Assembly: GCA_964536215.1 (NCBI GenBank)
Contig: CAZHWT010000001.1
Coordinates: forward strand, 15,671 to 79,670
DNA: 64,000 bases
Origin: an uncultured Candidatus Saccharibacteria bacterium
GTDB lineage: Bacteria; Patescibacteriota; CAZHWT01
Direction: 5' to 3'
Below, in pieces: positions 6,377-60,545 of the stretch. The translations under genes were made by a program, and so were the position numbers. Within the stretch, counting starts at the first letter, position 1. Every line of letters starts with the position of its first letter. Under the pieces are notes generated by a model. It did no database searches, was not told the DNA's origin, and saw nothing but the letters and a program-made list of their open reading frames with translations.

Positions 6377-6656
6377 TGCTACGAACAATGGGGCATCCGC
6401 TTATCCGACATTCCTAACATGCCATTTTCTATGATCACTAGGCACCCCAGGATACCCCGGTATGAGTTAGGAATTATGAATTACGAATTACGAGTTACGA
6501 GGAACGAATAAACGGACGAGTAGGCAAAATTAAAATTGGAATAAGAGCCAAAAACAAAAAACTACTTTTGAGAGGCGGATAGGATGTTGCCCCGTTGAGA
6601 GGCGGGCAACCTCTGTCCAAGGAAGGTTGAGAGAGGAAAGGAAGGGGGAGAGGCGT

Positions 6657-7943: not shown

Positions 7944-7974
7944 CTTTCCCTTGACTGGAATGCTACGAATGGGT

Positions 7975-8052
7975 TTTTAGTTTGTGGTTTATAGTTTATA
8001 GTTATACGAATGATACGAATTGCCATAACCCATTAACGATAAACGATAAACG
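7975..8052. repeat. AT-rich short tandem repeats (ggtttttagtttgtggtttatagtttatag ... acgataaacgataaacgaat)
   Basis: Member of the dispersed GGTTTATGG/TAGTTTAT and CGATAAA 7-mer repeat family. Also seen at 32385-32500, 44976-45010, 45575-45620, 47535-47565 and 54634-54720. Confidence 0.6.
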
Positions 8053-23971: not shown

Positions 23972-24170
23972 ATAGTGCTCAGAGTACTGCGATTAATGTT
24001 TTTGCTACTTTACAGAGATAAAAACTGATACGTACGTACACGTATATGTACCTACAATTTTCTATTTTCTATTTTCTATTTTCTATTTTCTATAAATAGC
24101 CTACCAGGCAGGCACTAAAAAAGAAAGCGCCCGAAGGCGCCTTCTTTAAGGTAAAGGACTGCTAAGTCTT

Positions 24171-29917: not shown

Positions 29918-30017
29918 TTGATTGATGGCTAATCGCTAATCGTTAATCGCTAATCGTTAATCGTATATCGTAAACCCCGATTTAATCGGGGTAAATCGCA
30001 CCTTGCTTTTGAACAAG

Positions 30018-30058
30018 TCAATGTACATACACGTGTACGTACACGTGTATGTACATCG
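30018..30058. repeat. 32-bp perfect palindrome gtacatacacgtgtacgtacacgtgtatgtac (GTAC/ACGT-rich)
   Basis: Self-complementary. Related GTACGTACACGT palindromes occur at 24030-24060, 37205-37240, 44215-44245 and 54855-54890. Confidence 0.6.
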
Positions 30059-32368: not shown

Positions 32369-32384
32369 TACGAATGATGATTGG

Positions 32385-32500
32385 TTTATGGTTTTTAGTT
32401 TATAGTTTTTAGTTGCTACGAATAGCCGAAATTACCAATAGCTAATGACCATAAACCATAAACTACGAACTGTAAACCGCAAACCATAACCTAAAAACTA
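32385..32500. repeat. Long imperfect inverted repeat built from GGTTTATGG/TAGTTTAT units between gyrB and gyrA
   Basis: Left arm ggtttatggtttttagtttatag. Right arm aaaccataaactacgaactgtaaaccgcaaaccataacc. Confidence 0.55.
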
Positions 32501-37118: not shown

Positions 37119-37431
37119 TACTGTTTGTTTTGTCGGGCATATCGCTATCCAGTGCCCTCAAGCAGAATCGACTGCGGCCAATCTGAACATCTCTATCTAC
37201 CAGCATCAACTGAAGTACGTACACATGTACGTACATGTGTACGTACTTGCGCAAATTACAAAACTCCTACTTTCAGTGCTGTCATTCAATACGATGGATT
37301 TTAGTTTATTACTATGATAGCTAAATATTTATCATTCCTTGCCGCTAAAAGTATGTATCGAACGGCTACTTAAGCCGATGTATACACCACTTGCAAAAAC
37401 CATAAAATTTTAGGTCGATTTGAGCAGAAAT

Positions 37432-43290: not shown

Positions 43291-43441
43291 GGGACTATTG
43301 TAGCGACAAACGGCTAGACTAGCAACAGGGGGAGGGGGTGAAGGGTGAAGGATAATAATTTAGCACCCTTCTCTTTCACCTTTAACCTTCAACCTGTAAC
43401 CTTCACCCTTCTCACTGGCGCAATGCTGTATACTGCATCAG

Positions 43442-45012: not shown

Positions 45013-45532
45013 TTAGGCTTCGAATTCAACCAGGATAGGAAGATGATCAGAGACTTGGGTAGATATAATTTGACTATTGATAATTTTCCAGGTCGCGCTG
45101 CGGAGTGGCCATAAACCGATCAGTGTACGAAGCATGAGTAGTGCCAACGCACAACGGCTGGTCAGCCCCGATATTGAGCTCAACTTGGCTATAGGCGCGC
45201 GTTTCGCTAGCAAAATCGCTAGAGCTAGTGGCCGTTTGCGTTTCGACATGTGATGGCGAGGAGAGAGGGTATCGGCTAATAATGGCATTGCCTTGCTCTC
45301 TATCGATGTTGCCCTGCTGATTAATCCATTGCTGAGCAGCAACATAGTACCCCCGATACGGTTTGCCCAGTTTTTGCATCACACTATCTGCGCTTGTTAC
45401 ATACGGGCGGAAGGACGTGGCGACGACTTCCTGCAGGCACATGATGTCCGGCCTGATATCAGCAATACATTCAGCAACCTTTTGCGGATCTTCTTTATAC
45501 CAAATGTTCCATTGCAGTAAGATTATTTTCAT
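45013..45532 (-). pseudogene. Endonuclease/exonuclease/phosphatase (EEP) family gene, split by a frameshift in an A4 homopolymer near 45079-45086
   Basis: N-terminal EEP part (LQWNIWYKEDP...DIMCLQEV) lies in ORF 45074..45532. The C-terminal SDHLPILVEFEA signature is in a different frame (ORF 45013..45345). Deleting one A in ggaaaatt would fuse ...RDLE to IINSQIISTQVSDHLPI. Confidence 0.5.
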
Positions 45533-45615
45533 CTAAAAAGGACGTATCCGTGCTAGCATCGTCTCAAATCTGCCAACTATAAACTACGAACCATAAACCA
45601 TAAACTCATTCGTAT

Positions 45616-46584
45616 CTACTCTTCATCCTGAGTAGAGGAGAGGTCTTTGTTGCCGCTATGGAAGGATGAGTGAATGTCTTTGAGGTGTTTATTGGTGACG
45701 TGAGTATAGATTTGGGTGGTGGCAATATTGGAATGGCCGAGCATTTCCTGGACGCTGCGTAGATCGGCGCCGTTAATTAATAAATCTGTAGCAAAGGAGT
45801 GGCGCAGTGTGTGCGGCGTAGCTTTGACCGATAAGGCTTGTTGCTTAACGTACTTTTCAACCATACGAGCCACCGAGCGGGGAGTGAGACGTAGGTCTTC
45901 CCCATCTTGGTCTTCCGGATTATGTTTTTTGCCGTTGTAGCGGATAAAAAGCGGTTTATGCTTATCTTTTCGTAACTGGAGATATTTGGCCAGCCAATCA
46001 ATGGCTTCATCTGATAAAAAGACTACTCTAGCCTTGCGCCCTTTGCCAATTACGCCAAATTCGCGGCGCTCCAGATTAATTTGATCTCGGTTAAGCGAGG
46101 TTAGCTCGGCCACCCGTAAGCCGGTCGAAAATAACGTTTCTAAGATAGCTCTATCCCTAATTCCCTCGATAGTAGTCGTATCTGGGGCCTCGATAAGCTG
46201 TTCTAGCTGCTGCTGATCTAAAAACTTGACCGTACGGTCCCCTTGTTTACCCAGCTCCACCTGATCTGGCGCCAGGGTGGTATAGCCTTTTAAGATTAAA
46301 TATCTCAAAAAAGCTCGCAGTCCGACCATAAAATAATTCTGATAGGAGCGCTTTAGTTCGTGCTTAGTCACTTCGCTCACCTGTCGGGTTAGGTGGAGGC
46401 GATATTTTTTGACCATCTCATAGGTTAAACCCTGTGGCTCGACTGGGCCGTAATTCTCAGTTAGCCACTGAGCAAAATGCCGCAAATAAAAGTCATAAAT
46501 GCGGACGGTGCCTTGCGACAGGTTCTTCTCTAGCTCGCTGTATTCAATAAAATCGGTTATAAGGTCATTCAATGGCTTGGACAT
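45616..46584 (-). CDS. xerC: Tyrosine recombinase XerC/XerD family
   Basis: N-terminal SAM-like core-binding domain. C-terminal catalytic R...HxxR...Y (HTLRHSFATDLL ... GHSNIATTQIYTHV). 322 aa. Confidence 0.8.
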   Translation of the reverse strand: MSKPLNDLITDFIEYSELEKNLSQGTVRIYDFYLRHFAQWLTENYGPVEPQGLTYEMVKKYRLHLTRQVSEVTKHELKRSYQNYFMVGLRAFLRYLILKGYTTLAPDQVELGKQGDRTVKFLDQQQLEQLIEAPDTTTIEGIRDRAILETLFSTGLRVAELTSLNRDQINLERREFGVIGKGRKARVVFLSDEAIDWLAKYLQLRKDKHKPLFIRYNGKKHNPEDQDGEDLRLTPRSVARMVEKYVKQQALSVKATPHTLRHSFATDLLINGADLRSVQEMLGHSNIATTQIYTHVTNKHLKDIHSSFHSGNKDLSSTQDEE

Positions 46585-46602
46585 GGTTTAAGGGTACAGG
46601 TT

Positions 46603-46672
46603 GAAGGTTGAAGGTTCAAGTGTTTTGAATTGAGCTGCACTCTAACCTTTAATCTTCAACCTACATATACCC
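46603..46672. repeat. Inverted repeat aggttgaaggttgaaggttcaag ... cctttaatcttcaacct immediately upstream of xerC
   Basis: ~17-nt arms built from GTTGAAG heptamer units. A related gtgaagggtgaagg / ccttcaccctt structure sits at 43338-43410. Confidence 0.45.
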
Positions 46673-47930
46673 AATCCTGGCATATCCTCTTGTCGAAAAA
46701 ACGTTTTGAAGGGGTAAACTGTCATCTTTTCCGCGTCCATCGCTTCTAGGGCCCTTGTAGGGCTTCGTATATGTTTTTTGCTTTTGCAGCAATAAATACT
46801 TACTTTTTAGTATCTACCCCCTATCTATAGCGTGGGCGACAGGGGAGTGGTAGGCAGGGAAATTCGACTATATCTGAGTATATTGAGCCATCTAGCATTC
46901 ATTTAGGCGGGAGAGGCTGTGGGGGAGACAATTGGCTGCATTTTTTAAGACATTTTCAACACGATTGTGCGCAAGCATGGCTGAAGGGGAAAATTTTGGC
47001 AAATTATTTGAAATATATTTTAATTGTCTATCAACGCATGGATGGCAGGAGGGGAGAGGAAAAATAATAATACTAGACGTCTTTAAATGTATCTTTAGAG
47101 ACGTCTAAGAGGAGTGAAACAGCCGGGGAAGAGGTGCGAGAGAGGGGCTTAGCTTTGAAGATGTGGTCATATTTTTATTAAATATGGCACTTGTATTGTT
47201 TGTTTTACGCTCAAGTTTGCTGAATTTGGCGAATCTTTCGGCCTGTCTTGGCTGGTTTGACTTAGGCTAACCGATTACCGCTTGTCTTTGAGGTCAGCAA
47301 CGGAGATATCTGAGTAAATCTGTGCTACGTATGCATGAATTAAGGCTTATCCACATAGCTTATTAGCAATCATTGTTAGTTGGTGTTAATTTTGGCATAT
47401 TTTTCAGCAAATTTTCCCTTTATTTTCCCCACAGCTTTGTGATGCTAGTTTGAGCAAGTGAAATTTTTTGAAATTTTGGTGAATTTTTTATGAGACCGGG
47501 GAGATGCTCTACTCTGGGGTGAGTGTGGACTTATGGTTGGTAGTTAATGGTTTATGGTTCGTAGCTTTTTATGACATGTGTGTAGTTGGAGAAAACTGCA
47601 TCAGACTAGATCATACCTTATTTTACTATAGGTCTCTTTATATGCTATAGTTTCCATATCTATGTTTCCATGTATATCCTATAGTTTTTTGTTATCGGTC
47701 TTCCCTCTTCCTTGCTAAGTCTCCCTATCTCACTCCCCTTTCTCTGAGGTCTGACACCAAATTCTTGGGCCAAGGTTTAGGTTAATTGGGCTATTTTGAC
47801 CCTATTTGTTGTGCGCCTGCGCCCAGCATGCAGGTAGTGTTTGATTGTTTTTCAATCTGATGCAGCTACTTGAGCTTCTGCATGCATTATACTACTATAG
47901 GCTTTTTTCTATGCGCCTCTCGCCTACTCT

Positions 47931-48707
47931 TTAGGTCCAGGCGCTTACAAAGTACAACACGACAATAATGATTCCACTGATAAATAAATACTGCTGTTGC
48001 ATGGCGCTTGAGAGCTGGCGGGCCTGTTGGTAATGAATGAGGCCAATGATCATGCTTATGCCTCCAGCTAAGCACAGACTAGTCATAAAACTTACAGGCC
48101 AAAATGCTAGGATGGCGGCTAGTTGAGCCGCTAGCAAGGCAACTAAGAACGACCAACCAATGCTATGGGTACTGCTGCGAGATAGTTTGGCCGCCCATAA
48201 TAACGGCCAACTTACCATCCAAGAAATACCCGCCACGGAGATAATCCACTCTCCTATATTCGGCAGCATGGACAACACGAGGTAAATTAAAGCGAATACA
48301 TATACCATGCCCATTAGGCTCATGACGGTTAAGGCTTGCCGGGCTAATGGGAGCGGCCTAACTGTGGCAACATTGAGAATGTTGAGGGTAAGAATTATAC
48401 CGTAATACCCCAAACTAAAAAGACCTACACTGGTCCAAACTAACCATGACGGTACGTGAAGCCAGTGCAGCCCCCAGTAGGCGGTTAGACTGAGTAACAG
48501 AGCATACAACGGAACAATGGCCCACTCCTCTGCTCTAAGGTCAAAGTCTAGCACCCAGACGGTAGCCAGGTACGTTATGATGAGGAAAGGGATGAGACTC
48601 CAGCCACCTAAAGGCCACATAATAGTGGCAGCGAGACAAGCACTCAAGCCAATAGCGCTGATAACAAATTTTTGTCTTTTAACGGAACGTAGGTCGAATG
48701 AGGACAT
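47931..48707 (-). CDS. Hypothetical polytopic membrane protein (~8 TM)
   Basis: 258 aa, Trp-rich hydrophobic helices. No family recognised. Confidence 0.45.
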   Translation of the reverse strand: MSSFDLRSVKRQKFVISAIGLSACLAATIMWPLGGWSLIPFLIITYLATVWVLDFDLRAEEWAIVPLYALLLSLTAYWGLHWLHVPSWLVWTSVGLFSLGYYGIILTLNILNVATVRPLPLARQALTVMSLMGMVYVFALIYLVLSMLPNIGEWIISVAGISWMVSWPLLWAAKLSRSSTHSIGWSFLVALLAAQLAAILAFWPVSFMTSLCLAGGISMIIGLIHYQQARQLSSAMQQQYLFISGIIIVVLYFVSAWT

Positions 48708-51616: not shown

Positions 51617-54532
51617 TTATTGTCCTCCTTTAGGTATCGGTTTATCTTGGCTGGTTAAAATAATCTCTCCACTAGATTGCGAAGTAGCTATGTGGCGAAT
51701 CGGCGTGTGGCCAATGCCGCCTGGTATGCCATGGATGGTCGTGGGGGAAGGGTGAGCTACGCGGCGAGGCTTCGGCTTGGGGTTAGCTTGGGAGTTACTG
51801 TCTGATTTGTGGTTATCCGACTGTACCGAAGCGTCAAAGGTTGGAATGACTCGAGTATGCGCTGGTTGGACGATTGGACGCGATTGATGGTCAGGGTGGC
51901 CAGCAGGCTGATCTGGCGCATGAACCTCTGCCCTACTCTGGCTACCAGTAGCGCTTTGTCCCTGACGTTGTGTCGGTGATTGGGATGAGGCAAGCTGCTG
52001 CTCTGCTACTACAGTTGACTCTGTACTACTCTGCTGTTTGGCTTGAGTACCTTCGAGGTAGGAAGCGTCGCGCTGTTGATCGCGTAGGCGCTGGATGGCA
52101 ACGTCGTCGACGCCAAGCTGAAACTTTTTGAGCGTCCATTTAGCAATTTTCTCTTCGACTTGGGCTTTTGTTTTAGGCGCGTATTGACGTCGTGAGGCTT
52201 CTATAATGGCAGCGCGATGCCCCTCGTGCCGGGCAATTGGTGGTAGGGTGGCGGCGCTAAATGGTCGCGATTCCATGCCGTCAATCATTAGTTTAAGGTA
52301 AATGTGATGTTTTTCCAAAGCGACCATATCTTCGGCGCTTAAGGCAGGCGCGAATTGCTGGGCCAAGATGGAAGCATCATTGGGTCCAACAGTAAAACTA
52401 ACGGTCGTGCCAACGTTACCAAATACAGCCGTCCTGACTTCCTCTGGTAGTTGGTCAATATACTGGTGAGTAATAATTAAATTGAGACGGTATTTACGAG
52501 CTTCGGACAGAATAGTGGCAAATGAGCTGGTGGCAAAGTTCTGGAACTCATCGGCATAGACATAAAAGTCCCGACGTTGCTCTTCCGGCATGCGCACCCG
52601 GGTCATGGCAGCGTTTTGCATCCGAGAGATAATCATAGCTCCCAGCAAGGACGAGTTATCCTCTCCTAGCTTACCTTTGGATAAGTTAATGAGGAAGATC
52701 TTGCCATTATCCATTATCTGGTCAATGCGGATTGTCGATTTAGCTTGGCCCACAATATTACGGATGGTCGATGTTTGTAAAAATTGACCGACTTTGTTCT
52801 GAATTGGCGCTACGGCTTCGGTAATTAATCGATCATTGGAGGCCATAGCGGCGTATTCTTTGTTCCAGAAGTTGCGCAGTTGCTCATCCTCAATAGTGTT
52901 CACAATCACTTTGCGATACTCTTTGTCGGTCAGTAGCCGGTTGACACCGAGTAGCGTAGAGTTAGGTACTTCAACTAAGGTTAAGAAGCAATTGCGTAGA
53001 ATGTACTCCAACCGGGGACCCCAGGAATCAAACCGTCGCTTGAACACGTCCACTAGAGCCGAGGCAGTCAGATTGCCTTGGGTGGGATCGAACAGTTCGA
53101 GCATGTTTAAGCTAACTGGATTATTAGCATCGGCCGGGTCAAACAATACAACATCATCAATGCGGCTTTCGGGGATGTTGTCCAAAAGCCGGTCGATGGT
53201 ATCGCCGTGCGGGTCCATAATGGCTAAGCCTTGGCCAGCCAAAATGTCTTTCATGATCATATTTTCCATTAAGGTGGACTTACCCGTACCCGTCTTTCCA
53301 ATCATATACATGTGCCGGCGGCGGTCTTCTGGCTTAATGCCAAAATAGACATTGCGACTGCGGAAGGCTGTCTTGCCAAACACAGTATCCACGTCGGTCG
53401 GCAGGTTGAGCGGCGGCTCCAATTGCTTGGCTTTACTCCAGGCAATGGTCGGCGTTTCGACGGTCAGGTTGGGGAGGTGGTAAATAGAAGCCAATTCTTC
53501 GGCATTGAGCACAAAGTAGCTCTCATCCTCGACTGGAAATGCCCGCAGCTGGTAATCGTGAAAAATGTCCTCGGCTTTACGCTCGACTGGCGAGATGGCA
53601 AAGCTGTTCAGATGAGTCATGGAAAACTGCTTAAACGAAGCTATAATTGAGGCCAGGGCCTGCTGCGATGACTGCTCTGATTGACCAATAGACACAATAC
53701 GGAGGGCTGTTTCGAAGCCAGGCTTGTTCATCTTATTCTCGATAGCCTTAAGTTCCAGATCCTGTCCGGCGGTTAGCTCCACCTTCTCCTCTTTTTTGGC
53801 TTTTTCTGGTGGTGCAGTAGCTGGGAAAACTGACTGAATCATAAAAGCTGGCAAGGAGGTAAACTCTTTTATGACATCATTAACCATTTGGACGATAAAA
53901 TTTGTCTGTTCGGGCTTGGATAATTCACCCTTTCTCACTTTGCTGACGTATTCATAGCCAGCATCCTGCCAAATGTCTTCTAACGGCCGGACTATTAACT
54001 GCATCCAGACCTGCTCCTCATGGTTTAGGCGTTCCACGGAACCAGTGATGGCTGCCAAAGGGTCGACTTGGAAATCAACAAAGGTTTTAATGGGGTGGTA
54101 ATATTCGCGGGTCAGAGCCATTTCAGCGGCCGTAACAACGGTGTGTCCGGCTGGCAGCTGATTGATATAATCTGTATCTACTTCGGAGATATTGGCGTTG
54201 GGATATTGGGCGTAAATTTGACCCTCGACGAAAGTGCGGAAATAGGTTGGAACGTGAACAAAGAAACGAATACCTTCGTGCGTAGCGACGAGCTCAAAGC
54301 TTAAGTGCTCTTGCAATCCGGGCGTTTTGGATAGCATGCCGTGCAAGGCCGTAAACATAATCTCGGCCGAGAGCGACGTTTTGTCGTTCATTTTGGGGAC
54401 TAAAATAGACAATAGTGTCCCCGCCTCCGGTTGCTGAGGCTCAGGGGGTGTTTCTTCTAATCCTTTTCCAGCGATTGTCCAGCCTAGCACCAAGGTTCCA
54501 GTAATAAACAGGACAATAATGAGCAACAGCAT
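51617..54532 (-). CDS. TraG/TraD/VirD4-like P-loop ATPase (type IV secretion coupling-protein-like) with N-terminal TM and Q/S/P-rich C-terminal tail
   Basis: Walker A MIGKTGTGKST followed by DPHGD. Walker B YVYADEFQNF. ITHQ sensor motif, typical of TrwB/TraG-family AAD. 971 aa. Confidence 0.55.
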   Translation of the reverse strand: MLLLIIVLFITGTLVLGWTIAGKGLEETPPEPQQPEAGTLLSILVPKMNDKTSLSAEIMFTALHGMLSKTPGLQEHLSFELVATHEGIRFFVHVPTYFRTFVEGQIYAQYPNANISEVDTDYINQLPAGHTVVTAAEMALTREYYHPIKTFVDFQVDPLAAITGSVERLNHEEQVWMQLIVRPLEDIWQDAGYEYVSKVRKGELSKPEQTNFIVQMVNDVIKEFTSLPAFMIQSVFPATAPPEKAKKEEKVELTAGQDLELKAIENKMNKPGFETALRIVSIGQSEQSSQQALASIIASFKQFSMTHLNSFAISPVERKAEDIFHDYQLRAFPVEDESYFVLNAEELASIYHLPNLTVETPTIAWSKAKQLEPPLNLPTDVDTVFGKTAFRSRNVYFGIKPEDRRRHMYMIGKTGTGKSTLMENMIMKDILAGQGLAIMDPHGDTIDRLLDNIPESRIDDVVLFDPADANNPVSLNMLELFDPTQGNLTASALVDVFKRRFDSWGPRLEYILRNCFLTLVEVPNSTLLGVNRLLTDKEYRKVIVNTIEDEQLRNFWNKEYAAMASNDRLITEAVAPIQNKVGQFLQTSTIRNIVGQAKSTIRIDQIMDNGKIFLINLSKGKLGEDNSSLLGAMIISRMQNAAMTRVRMPEEQRRDFYVYADEFQNFATSSFATILSEARKYRLNLIITHQYIDQLPEEVRTAVFGNVGTTVSFTVGPNDASILAQQFAPALSAEDMVALEKHHIYLKLMIDGMESRPFSAATLPPIARHEGHRAAIIEASRRQYAPKTKAQVEEKIAKWTLKKFQLGVDDVAIQRLRDQQRDASYLEGTQAKQQSSTESTVVAEQQLASSQSPTQRQGQSATGSQSRAEVHAPDQPAGHPDHQSRPIVQPAHTRVIPTFDASVQSDNHKSDSNSQANPKPKPRRVAHPSPTTIHGIPGGIGHTPIRHIATSQSSGEIILTSQDKPIPKGGQ

Positions 54533-54633: not shown

Positions 54634-54720
54634 TTGTTAAACGTTAAACGTTAAACGTTAAACGTTAATCGTTTATGATTAGCGATTAGCGATTAGCGAT
54701 TAGCGATTAGCGATTAGCGA
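54634..54720. repeat. Two adjacent heptamer microsatellites: (TAAACGT)x4-5 then (GATTAGC)x6
   Basis: Perfect tandem copies in an intergenic region. Confidence 0.7.
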
Positions 54721-54904
54721 TTAAGGGGATTTTAGCACGAGGTGGTATTTGTTTATTTTGCGTCTTGTGACTTGGTTTGGCATTTGGATTCTTGTGCCTT
54801 GGCATTTACCGGTGAGTTTGAATATTTCATAGTCGCCTGATTCCATTCCTTTAGCCCGATTATACGTATATGTATATGTATACGTATACCTTAGGATACA
54901 AAAA

Positions 54905-56112: not shown

Positions 56113-57359
56113 GGTACATACTCCTGTTTTAAGGCTTGAAAAGCAGCTGGACCATCTTCTAACGCGGTTCGAACTTTTTGCATGAGACCAAGCATGGTAT
56201 AGACATTATGGTACGAGGCTAAGCGAGCGCCGAGGATTTCACCAGCCCGGCAGAGGTGGTTAAGGTAGGCACGGGTATACGTAGTGCAGACCCAGCAGCG
56301 ACAGGTCGGATCCGGTGGTGAAAAATCCTGGCGATATTTGCCATTGGTAATAATTAAACGATAGGGGTTGGCTGAGCCTTCAGCTTTGGCTGTTTGCGGA
56401 TGAACGATAAGGGTGCCGTTGCGAGCCCAGCGGGTGGGAGTAACACAGTCGAACGTGTCTATACCCCGCTCTACGCCCATAAAAATGTCATCTATATCCC
56501 CTACTCCCAGCAAATGGCGTGGCTTGGCTGGATTGAGATGAGGCGTGCTCCATTCAACGGCTTGGCGCATTTGGTCCTTGCTCTCCCCCACCGAGACGCC
56601 GCCGACGCAATACCCGTCAAAATCGAGCGTATCAATATATTTGGCAGATTGTTGGCGTAAATCCTGATAAACGCCGCCCTGAGTAATGCCGAATAGATGT
56701 TGATGCGATTGGCCGTGCTGCTGATGATAGTCTAGGCCCCGCTTGGCCCAGGCGTGAGTACGCTGCATAGCCTCCTGAGTGTATTCATGGGTGGCTGGAT
56801 GTGGGGCACATTCATCAAAGGACAGAATAATGTCAGCGCCGATTTTGTGCTGAGTGGCTAAGGAGATTTCGGGAGTAAAACGATGAATAGAGCCGTCCAA
56901 GTGAGAGTGGAAGGTGACGCCGTCATCGTCAATGCGGGCCAGGAGGGGTGAGTTTCGAGTTTCGAGTTTCGAGTTTCGAGTTTGGGATTGGAGGGCGAGG
57001 GACGAGTCTCTTGCTGCCTTGCTGCCTTGCTGTCTTGCTGCTTTACCTAATCCAAGACTAAAAACCTGAAAACCACCGGAATCCGTAAATAAGGCGCCGG
57101 GCCAGGATTGAAATTGATGCAGCCCGCCAGCCGCGGCGATAGTGTCGGCACCCGGACGCATGTATAGGTGATAGGTGTTGCCGAGAATGAGGCGGGCACC
57201 CATATCCCATAATTCTTGCTGGGACAAGGTTTTAACCGTAGCTTGAGTGCCGACTGGAAAAAAGGCTGGCGTTTCAATGGAGCCATGGCTGGTGTTAATG
57301 CGACCACGACGAGCAGCGGTACCCGGCAGCGTTTGCAGTTGTTCAAAAAACGGCGTCAT
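56109..57359 (-). CDS. tgt: Queuine tRNA-ribosyltransferase (tRNA-guanine transglycosylase) carrying an in-frame microsatellite insertion
   Basis: Tgt motifs (LILGNTYHLYMRPG; zinc site CRCWVC...H). 416 aa. Extra ~40 aa (KAARQQGSKAARDSS...TRNSKLETRNSKLETRNSPL) are encoded by the repeats at 56950-57041. Confidence 0.85.
   Translation of the reverse strand: MTPFFEQLQTLPGTAARRGRINTSHGSIETPAFFPVGTQATVKTLSQQELWDMGARLILGNTYHLYMRPGADTIAAAGGLHQFQSWPGALFTDSGGFQVFSLGLGKAARQQGSKAARDSSLALQSQTRNSKLETRNSPLLARIDDDGVTFHSHLDGSIHRFTPEISLATQHKIGADIILSFDECAPHPATHEYTQEAMQRTHAWAKRGLDYHQQHGQSHQHLFGITQGGVYQDLRQQSAKYIDTLDFDGYCVGGVSVGESKDQMRQAVEWSTPHLNPAKPRHLLGVGDIDDIFMGVERGIDTFDCVTPTRWARNGTLIVHPQTAKAEGSANPYRLIITNGKYRQDFSPPDPTCRCWVCTTYTRAYLNHLCRAGEILGARLASYHNVYTMLGLMQKVRTALEDGPAAFQALKQEYVP
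56950..57041. repeat. Intragenic microsatellites inside tgt: (GAGTTTC)x5 at 56950-56984 and (CTTGCTGC)x4 at 57010-57041
   Basis: Perfect or near-perfect tandem heptamer and octamer copies, translated in frame as KLETRNS repeats and AARQ/GSKAAR. Confidence 0.8.
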
Positions 57360-60387: not shown

Positions 60388-60545
60388 AGGTGTCCAAATG
60401 CCAAGTTAGGTAAGCGTCAAGATTCAAGAGTTCAAATGTCAAAGGAAGGTAGAAGAAGTAAGGTATACGTAATTTTTACGACTTGAAGCTTACGTCTTTG
60501 TTTGGTATTTGGACTCTTGAATCTTGGCATTTGGATTCTGGTGGC
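60388..60545. repeat. ~160-bp imperfect palindrome built from TCTTGGCATTTGGA(C/T)TCT-type units between the kinase and regulator genes
   Basis: Left arm gtccaaatgccaag...gattcaagagttcaaatgtcaaagg. Right arm tttggtatttggactcttgaatcttggcatttggattct. The same ttggcatttggattcttg motif occurs at 54770-54800. Confidence 0.5.

Follow-up and report, generated by a model that had tools for sequence, protein, structure and literature searches.

In a stretch of 64,000 nucleotides from an uncultured Candidatus Saccharibacteria bacterium (GTDB lineage Patescibacteriota, CAZHWT01; assembly GCA_964536215.1, contig CAZHWT010000001.1, positions 15,671 to 79,670 of the forward strand), which we call the window, a gene for a Xer-family tyrosine recombinase (xerC) and a gene for a DUF5656-like multi-pass membrane protein are separated by a conspicuous non-coding gap with a palindrome at its centre (Table 1). 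The gap is free of open reading frames (ORFs) of at least 80 amino acids on both strands (46585-47930, 1346 nt). At a threshold of 60 amino acids, for which the preliminary description had given the same limits, it ends at 47886 and measures 1302 nt. No other ORF-free gap in the window is as long at any threshold tried, the runner-up having 551-827 nt. The low GC content reported for it is also found here (0.41 in the gap and 0.39 over 47001-48000, vs ~0.48 elsewhere in the window), and the purine-rich tracts are real and consist mostly of GGGGAG-type motifs. The + strand is G+T-rich in 47-48 kb. The xerC product matches Phage_integrase (E = 1.6e-44) and scores as a generic XerC/D protein: the XerC and XerD models give 234-239 bits, below their equivalog cut-offs, and the XerS model gives only 118 bits. 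Beyond the DUF5656-like gene, the next gene encodes a YebC/PmpR regulator, which is syntenic in the relatives described below.

Is this gap particular to one genome? Homologous gaps of 1.0-1.6 kb, each following the same gene for a membrane protein of ~260 amino acids, are present in nine Candidate Phyla Radiation (CPR) genomes related to Daviesbacteria. These are the window and eight relatives (L031, L032, L034, L039, L040, L041, L043 and L009; labels of the form L0xx denote relatives), whose loci were taken from contigs encoding homologues in a protein collection. In seven of the nine genomes the gap is directly upstream of xerC, and the order TPR, YebC, DUF5656-like gene, gap (1.1-1.6 kb), xerC is found in L031, L032, L034, L040, L041 and L042/L043. 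L039 and the named Daviesbacteria genome L009 also have the gap (1138 and 1036 nt, respectively) after the DUF5656-like gene, with three genes between the gap and xerC; the gene at the membrane-protein position of L039 matches PF18900 (DUF5656). The XerC proteins of L031 and L034 are 85% and 72% identical to that of the window, the DUF5656 proteins of L031, L041 and L043 are 42-55% identical to their counterpart, and the flanking xerC DNA is 67-74% identical. Eight metagenome contigs that encode the same XerC match the window over the region with 100% identity, in one orientation and with no rearrangement. Scans of genomes and metagenomes with XerC yielded no relative above 63% identity, and those found shared neither synteny nor a gap beside xerC. 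The comparison with related genomes that had been suggested as a check therefore reveals a non-coding chromosomal locus that is conserved in a Daviesbacteria-related CPR clade. Since the gap and its gene order are kept in nine genomes, the locus is a stable inherited unit and not a decaying remnant.

Some details of the relatives are worth recording. L039 (3712-4242, 6165-10000) has RuvC between YebC and the DUF5656 gene, and one of its three inserted genes encodes a cohesin domain; L009 (2529-5980) likewise has three genes inserted between gap and xerC. Contigs of the same and related species (L004, L007, L008, L033, L035, L036, L044 and L045) often end inside the gap, at window positions 46635, 47583 and 47861, which hints at strain-level variation or an assembly problem.

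An alignment of eight gaps (A2; an earlier alignment is A1, and L009 stands outside the alignment) resolves about 12 conserved blocks against a weak background, with a mean column identity of 41%. When this alignment is ranked by conservation in a sliding window, the palindrome at 47077-47104 comes first, block 1 second and block 12 third, followed by the A/T-tract blocks and block 5. The palindromic core has two 11-nt arms, complementary at 10 of 11 positions, around a 6-nt centre. In the extended form of this AGACGTCT palindrome, the arms 47074-47087 and 47094-47107 are complementary at 13 of 14 positions around the same centre, and the palindrome previously reported at 47075-47105 is thus real. 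An imperfect dyad of 11-6-11 is the layout that defines dif (PMC5357621), and the core has the two inverted arms of ~11 bp and the centre of 6-8 bp that are expected of such a site. It is single-copy and intergenic within the 64 kb, where 0 copies are expected by chance. All eight aligned gaps carry a version of the core, in three types. An identical 28-mer (type 1) is shared by the window, L031, L034, L041 and L043, five genomes with DUF5656 proteins of only 42-56% identity; type 2 is ACGTCGTCTAA-TATACA-ATATACGACGT in L032 and L040; and type 3 is ACGTCGCACAA-TGTATC-TTATGCGATGT in L039. The arms co-vary among the three types, with the outer ACGTC and the centre retained. Relative to the other genomes, the centre is inverted in L039 and L009 (TGTATC in the xerC sense). 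In seven genomes the core lies 330-710 nt upstream of xer.

How similar are these cores to known dif sites? We scanned every locus on both strands with a matrix built from the 18 proteobacterial dif sites in PMC2731167. The homologous core is the top match in L039 (22.1 bits; next 8.5), L040 (13.1; next 9.8) and L032 (12.6; next 9.4), and the core of the unaligned L009, ATGTCGTACAA-TGTATC-TTATGCGACAT, reaches 21.3 bits (next 11.9). L009 belongs to the more distant CPR loci. Among these, L027 has a site of 20.0 bits 552 nt upstream of xer (next 6.6), and L011 and L012 have weaker sites less than 100 nt upstream of xer. Across the clade, the sequences form a series from classical dif to the diverged type of the window at one homologous position. 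We also surveyed distant loci for 6-nt-spaced palindromes close to xer; these occur about once per 4 kb by chance and are not evidence on their own.

We are interested in whether short words change their strand preference at the core. A k-mer scan with no preset motif, in which the pooled test comprised 832 hexamers, singles out GGGGAG. Pooled over eight loci, its strand counts are 20:4 on one side of the core and 7:58 on the other (p = 1.6e-10); the corresponding counts are 12:1 vs 6:37 in the seven relatives alone (p = 3.8e-7), 18:3 vs 5:43 outside the gaps, and 8:3 vs 1:21 in the window alone, where the maximum-likelihood switch point is 47,500. The composition-matched words GAGGGG and GGAGGG do not flip at the core. 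Of the 21 copies on the + strand to the left of the core in the window, 7 are on coding strands, 6 on template strands and 8 intergenic, indicating that gene orientation is not the cause of the bias; to the right of the core, the bias opposes the GC skew. Within the gap, the three copies on the xerC side are all directed at the core and are the counterparts, in the xerC sense, of the conserved pyrimidine blocks 7, 9/10 and 11, with homologues in relatives at approximately +50, +175 and +255 nt from the core. A copy on the opposite side points back at the core; only the copy at 47498(+) departs from the converging pattern. The pooled counts thus show the convergence on the core that is expected of polar oligomers around dif. 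By analogy, GGGGAG behaves as FtsK-orienting polar sequences (KOPS) and architecture imparting sequences (AIMS) do at dif.

We propose that the palindrome is probably the dif site of the adjacent Xer recombinase and that the locus is an xer-dif module. The proposal is based on the 11-6-11 layout, the extreme conservation, the positional homology to dif-like sites and the converging polar motif; as far as sequence can tell, an active cognate recombinase is also at hand, since the adjacent protein has the full catalytic set (R, K, HxxR, H and Y). The recombinase would bind both 11-nt arms, and strand exchange across the 6-bp centre would resolve chromosome dimers. The GGGGAG copies on both chromosome arms, pointing to the core, would guide a DNA translocase as KOPS guide FtsK, and block 12 probably carries the xerC promoter.

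A number of observations weigh against this proposal. On the + strand, GC skew stays positive over 1-66.5 kb and does not switch at the core (from 47 kb to its left to 19 kb to its right), and L034 has strongly positive skew to either side of its gap; the core therefore does not lie at a skew switch as a dif site is expected to. The flip of GGGGAG in the window alone (p ~1e-4) fails correction for 2001 hexamers, other k-mers flip similarly or more strongly at control breakpoints, L009 has no GGGGAG polarity (7:5), and the pooled p-values are inflated, as the eight loci are related by descent. Against the proteobacterial dif matrix the core of the window scores -1.6 bits and ranks 282 (type 1 cores score -1 to -3 bits), so it is through positional homology that this core is tied to dif. 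The type 1 and type 3 cores were also searched for in viral contigs, with no match, and no viral or mobile contig carries the site. Finally, dif covers 28 of ~1350 nt and does not account for the conservation and spacing of ~1 kb of flanking blocks.

The suggestion in the preliminary description that this is the dif or terminus region served by the Xer recombinase is therefore supported for dif, by architecture, conservation, positional homology and polar motif, and is not supported for a terminus placed by GC skew. Published dif sites lie within ~1.4% of genome length of the skew shift point, with outliers at 3% (PMC3025954), and with such offsets a skew switch more than 19 kb from the core is still compatible with dif. 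An apparent turn of the skew at 62-64 kb disappears when the window is extended by 2.5 kb past its right end (L037). In a contig of 1.05 Mb, xerC is at ~839 kb, a position that could be interpreted only with that of the origin. The skew is positive regardless of gene orientation and peaks (0.1-0.25) at 54-61 kb, a stretch with genes on the - strand only. This uniformity is at odds with the strand switches of GGGGAG and of a second word, AGAGTA (360-63289), which favours the + strand by 22:3 as far as 37.4 kb and stands at 1:12 beginning with 40.8 kb, independently of gene strand (p ~2e-6). We rejected AGAGTA as part of the polar motif: its switch at 37.4-40.8 kb is 7-9 kb from the core, and it has no polarity in the relatives.

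Comparison with known Xer systems places the locus among several of them. In streptococci and lactococci, XerS and difSL form one module in which a Xer-family gene is linked to its site (PMC5357621, PMC1914069). The core described here is likewise linked to xer. However, difSL has 31 bp with an 11-bp centre and is immediately beside xerS, whereas the present site has 28 bp (11-6-11), is centred in ~1.2 kb of conserved non-coding DNA, and accompanies a generic XerC/D recombinase and not XerS. The archaeal XerA/dif system of the Thermococcales has near-perfect arms, a 6-bp spacer, high conservation between species and 14-18 of 28 positions as in the bacterial consensus; its AT-rich flanks are conserved, and skewed short words, rather than GC skew, back its location (PMC2958812). 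The dyad arms and the reliance on skewed words are shared with our locus, but the archaeal site is away from xerA and its conserved flanks extend ~23 bp, compared with hundreds of bp here. As in classical XerCD/dif with KOPS and FtsK, the layout is 11-6-11, the sites of L039 and L009 score 21-22 bits against proteobacterial dif, and a G-rich polar word, GGGGAG (compare GGGNAGGG), converges on the core. In contrast to classical dif, the window has arms (ACGTCTYTAAA) that diverge from the inner arms CATAA/TTATG, its GC skew shows no switch, and no FtsK was found in it. The plasmid site cer is a non-coding region of 280 bp to which ArgR and PepA bind (PMC5357621). In cer and psi, as here, a Xer core is within non-coding DNA whose length matters, and by analogy only, a spacing of 334-335 nt between the core and block 12 suggests a similar geometric constraint. 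Those are plasmid sites with ~180 bp of accessory DNA on one side, whereas our locus is chromosomal, with ~0.35-0.6 kb on each side and without known accessory proteins.

The translocase candidate in the window is of another kind than FtsK. Four genes from the core, a gene on the - strand (51617-54532) encodes a TrwB/HerA-type ATPase of 971 amino acids that matches conjugative coupling proteins and CedD, a DNA-translocating ATPase, only weakly. The gene keeps its synteny with the gap in L031, L032, L034 and L040, and we regard its product as a candidate DNA translocase in the neighbourhood of the dif-like site.

If the proposal is right, what would it add? CPR bacteria have tiny genomes and unusual cell biology. 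A literature search found no paper connecting Patescibacteria with dif or XerC, and chromosome dimer resolution is apparently undescribed for CPR bacteria, as far as we found. The locus supplies a testable dif candidate for them, together with GGGGAG as a candidate translocase-guiding motif. The graded series from classical dif to a diverged palindrome within one clade should be useful for the study of recombinase-site co-evolution. For annotation, the locus explains an empty region that recurs in CPR assemblies and at which contigs frequently break.

Table 1. Features of the gap and its two neighbouring genes, with positions and strands in the window
Feature	Position	Strand	Remarks
Xer-family tyrosine recombinase (xerC), 322 amino acids	45616-46584	-	left neighbour of the gap
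Heptamer-periodic hairpin, GGTTGAA x3 and complement	46598-46662		at the xerC start; window-only insertion
Block 12: AAGCCCTACAAGGGCCCTAGAAG, preceded by TTAnTn-N16-17-TAnAnn	46738-46800	-	most conserved part 46738-46765
Block 11: local hairpin/inverted repeat CCCCTGTC...GATAGGGG	46816-46848		12 pairs, a few changed on both sides
GGGGAG, three copies (46842, 46922, 47051)	46842-47056	+	xerC side, all pointing at the core
Block 8, A/T-tract	46987-47014	-	second copy of the block 4 motif, across the core
dif-like core ACGTCTTTAAA-TGTATC-TTTAGAGACGT, 11-6-11	47077-47104		most conserved 28 nt
TTATCCACA (TGTGGATAA in the xerC sense), perfect DnaA-box 9-mer	47347-47355	+	sole perfect copy in 64 kb
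Block 5: ...AATGATTGCTAATA	47361-47388	-	placed by conservation ranking
Block 4, A/T-tract: AAATTTCAAAAAATTTCAC	47461-47488	-	TGAAATTTTT x3 at ~10-nt phase on the + strand
TTATGGT-type heptamer element	47531-47568		right arm of 26-nt inverted repeat; window-only insertion (A2 columns 701-770)
Block 1: TTAGCA...AGACCGATAA...ACTATAGG...ATGGAAAC x2...CTATAG	47642-47718	-	second most conserved
GGGGAG	47733-47738	-	far side of the core, oriented toward it
DUF5656-like multi-pass membrane protein, 258 amino acids	47931-48707	-	right neighbour; the gap always follows its stop codon

The conserved blocks outside the core are described in the xerC sense (the - strand of the window). Blocks 4 and 8 bring A/T-tracts with a period of 10 to both sides of the core. 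TTAGCA in block 1 and TGCTAA in block 5 form an inverted pair ~380 nt apart whose first five positions are invariant, and ACTATAGG and ATGGAAAC of block 1 are nearly restricted to the gap. Block 12 is 128-190 nt upstream of the xerC start. Its spacing of 334-335 nt from the core holds in four genomes across near-random intervening sequence. It is plausible that block 12 is the xerC promoter and the start of its leader; a scan of promoter and terminator consensus sequences gave no enrichment over shuffles. A perfect DnaA-box 9-mer, TGTGGATAA, recurs with unchanged orientation in L009 and in 7 of the 8 aligned gaps, and none of the four loci that were checked whole has a second perfect copy. In the window the copy at the ancestral position has been lost and the present one is 270 nt away, which suggests selection for the presence of a box. 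Together, the DnaA box, the A-tracts, the inverted pair and the fixed spacing suggest a DNA-protein architecture around the core. Our best guess is that this remaining ~1 kb of blocks would be accessory or regulatory protein-binding DNA. DnaA-trio-like and parS-like readings of blocks 1-2 failed on inspection.

It is tempting to go one step further and hypothesize that the whole ~1.2-kb locus is a chromosomal terminus organiser of a new kind, in which dif is set in a scaffold of fixed geometry (the DnaA box, the phased A-tracts on both sides, the TTAGCA/TGCTAA pair and the spacing to block 12) that assembles accessory proteins controlling Xer recombination, as at cer and psi. This is possible though rather unlikely. 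If true, recombination might be linked to DnaA or to the syntenic TrwB/HerA-type ATPase instead of classical FtsK. A length-constrained conserved kilobase with a DnaA-box motif is in any case unusual for a chromosomal dif and could indicate accessory control of Xer recombination. Might the palindrome instead be the operator of a dimeric transcription factor, e.g., the YebC-family regulator encoded two genes away, and the gap a promoter or regulatory region that serves xerC or genes downstream and in which no recombination takes place? A perfect-dyad layout fits a dimeric regulator, the YebC/PmpR gene keeps its synteny with the gap, a -10-like hexamer abuts TGTGGATAA in several genomes, and block 12 is promoter-like at its distance before xerC. 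However, the homologous sites of L039 and L009 match published dif at scores that nothing else in those loci approaches (at most 12 bits), both genomes still keep the gap with three genes between core and xerC, and the polarity switch of GGGGAG has no place in a promoter model, so that we consider an operator unlikely. The DnaA box points to another alternative, a DnaA-binding locus of replication control (oriC, or a titrating site like datA or DARS) in which the palindrome is incidental. The fixed orientation and uniqueness of the box, its retention in the window after loss of the ancestral copy, the AT-rich gap with repeated A-tract 10-mers, and the proximity of gyrB-gyrA (10-15 kb from the gap) all fit such a role. 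Yet each gap has a single strong box and no cluster, relaxed DnaA boxes are merely 1.7-fold enriched (5.3 vs 3.2 per kb), dnaA and dnaN were not found among the 29 window ORFs scanned, the GC skew has no sign change at the gap, and GGGGAG converges on it as at a terminus and unlike an origin. The gap does not qualify as an oriC on these grounds, and a replication-control locus of any of these kinds is quite improbable.

The preliminary description had offered two further explanations, a large structured non-coding RNA and a decayed mobile element beside its integrase, and neither has found support. That the gap encodes one large or several small non-coding RNAs, with the blocks as RNA motifs, would agree with the many conserved blocks at conserved spacing, the G+T-rich + strand, and the hairpin of block 11, whose pairing survives base changes and is the sole conserved pairing found in the gap. 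However, Rfam 15 gives 0 matches at gathering score in the whole window and only chance-level ones at E < 10 in 45400-48100, and a tRNA and tmRNA scan of the window is negative. The fold z-scores of 150-nt tiles are like those of shuffles on both strands (-0.3 to +1.3), except at the two palindromes and a few local hairpin tiles (-1.7 to -2.2). Consensus folding of both gap halves yields trivial structures (-5 to -10 kcal/mol over 356-674 columns) with mainly invariant pairs and no useful covariation in either half. The mismatches of the core arms are not G-U compatible, so nothing indicates RNA pairing specifically, and phased A-tracts are a feature of DNA. We judge the RNA explanation very unlikely. 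A protein-coding gene or pseudogene is rejected as well: Pfam finds nothing beyond chance at E < 10 in 10 small gap ORFs, a comparison of 8 genomes shows no small ORF whose position or frame is conserved, and the few BLASTP matches are translated conserved DNA blocks. The mobile explanation, to which we give hardly any credence, sees in the gap a mobile-element remnant or an invertible segment that is flipped or moved by the recombinase bracketed by its 26-nt inverted repeat (45581-45606/47542-47567, 92% complementary, enclosing xerC and 950 nt of the gap). A truncated ORF of the endonuclease/exonuclease/phosphatase (EEP) family adjoins xerC, and metagenome contigs often break inside the gap, as a mobile or invertible segment might lead one to expect. 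On the other side, both arms are window-specific insertions of a heptamer class spread over the genome, the eight contigs compared (as assembled) show a single orientation and complete identity, and the recombinase is a syntenic Xer orthologue at a locus whose gene order is kept in nine genomes. The segment was accordingly rejected as an inverton.

The heptamer class itself deserves a short description. The inverted repeat noted earlier at the xerC start (as 46603-46672) exists, with arms at 46598-46622 and 46638-46662 that are 84% complementary, and it is missing from the gaps of all relatives. Copies resembling the element at 47531-47568 are found at 7980 and 32384-32477. About 20 tandem arrays of period 7 are present in the 64 kb; they are common in intergenic DNA and often form inverted pairs that make long hairpins. 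Examples are at 6461-6500, 7973-8003, 24057-24093, 29928-29970, 32384-32489, 43373-43411, 54636-54723, 56950-56983 and 60417-60526, and an inverted pair (4437-4473/5919-5955) brackets the tyrosyl-tRNA synthetase gene. The absence of the gap's arrays from the gaps of relatives suggests a lineage-specific, expanding repeat class. Two arrays, GATTAGC x6.7 (54677-54723) and its complement GCTAATC x5.1 (29928-29963), repeat the heptamer of the inverted pair of the gap, GATTAGCA / TGCTAATA, and the two may share a protein-binding motif. The 7-bp inverted repeat catattt/aaatatg, previously given as 47167-47190, is present at 47168-47186; it is not conserved in relatives and is probably due to chance.

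Two other features of the window lie outside the gap. The EEP-family ORF (45013-45532) covers only profile positions 1-86 of 225 and is overlapped by an ORF of 110 amino acids in another frame, and is thus probably a frameshifted pseudogene; ORF calls at this position differ in some metagenome contigs. Near-identical perfect palindromes of 28 nt, ACATACACGTG-TACGTA-CACGTGTATGT (30025-30052) and ACGTACACATG-TACGTA-CATGTGTACGT (37217-37244), are found in gaps of 486 nt and 638 nt that bracket the genes for gyrB, gyrA, a C39-like peptidase and a LigD primase-polymerase.

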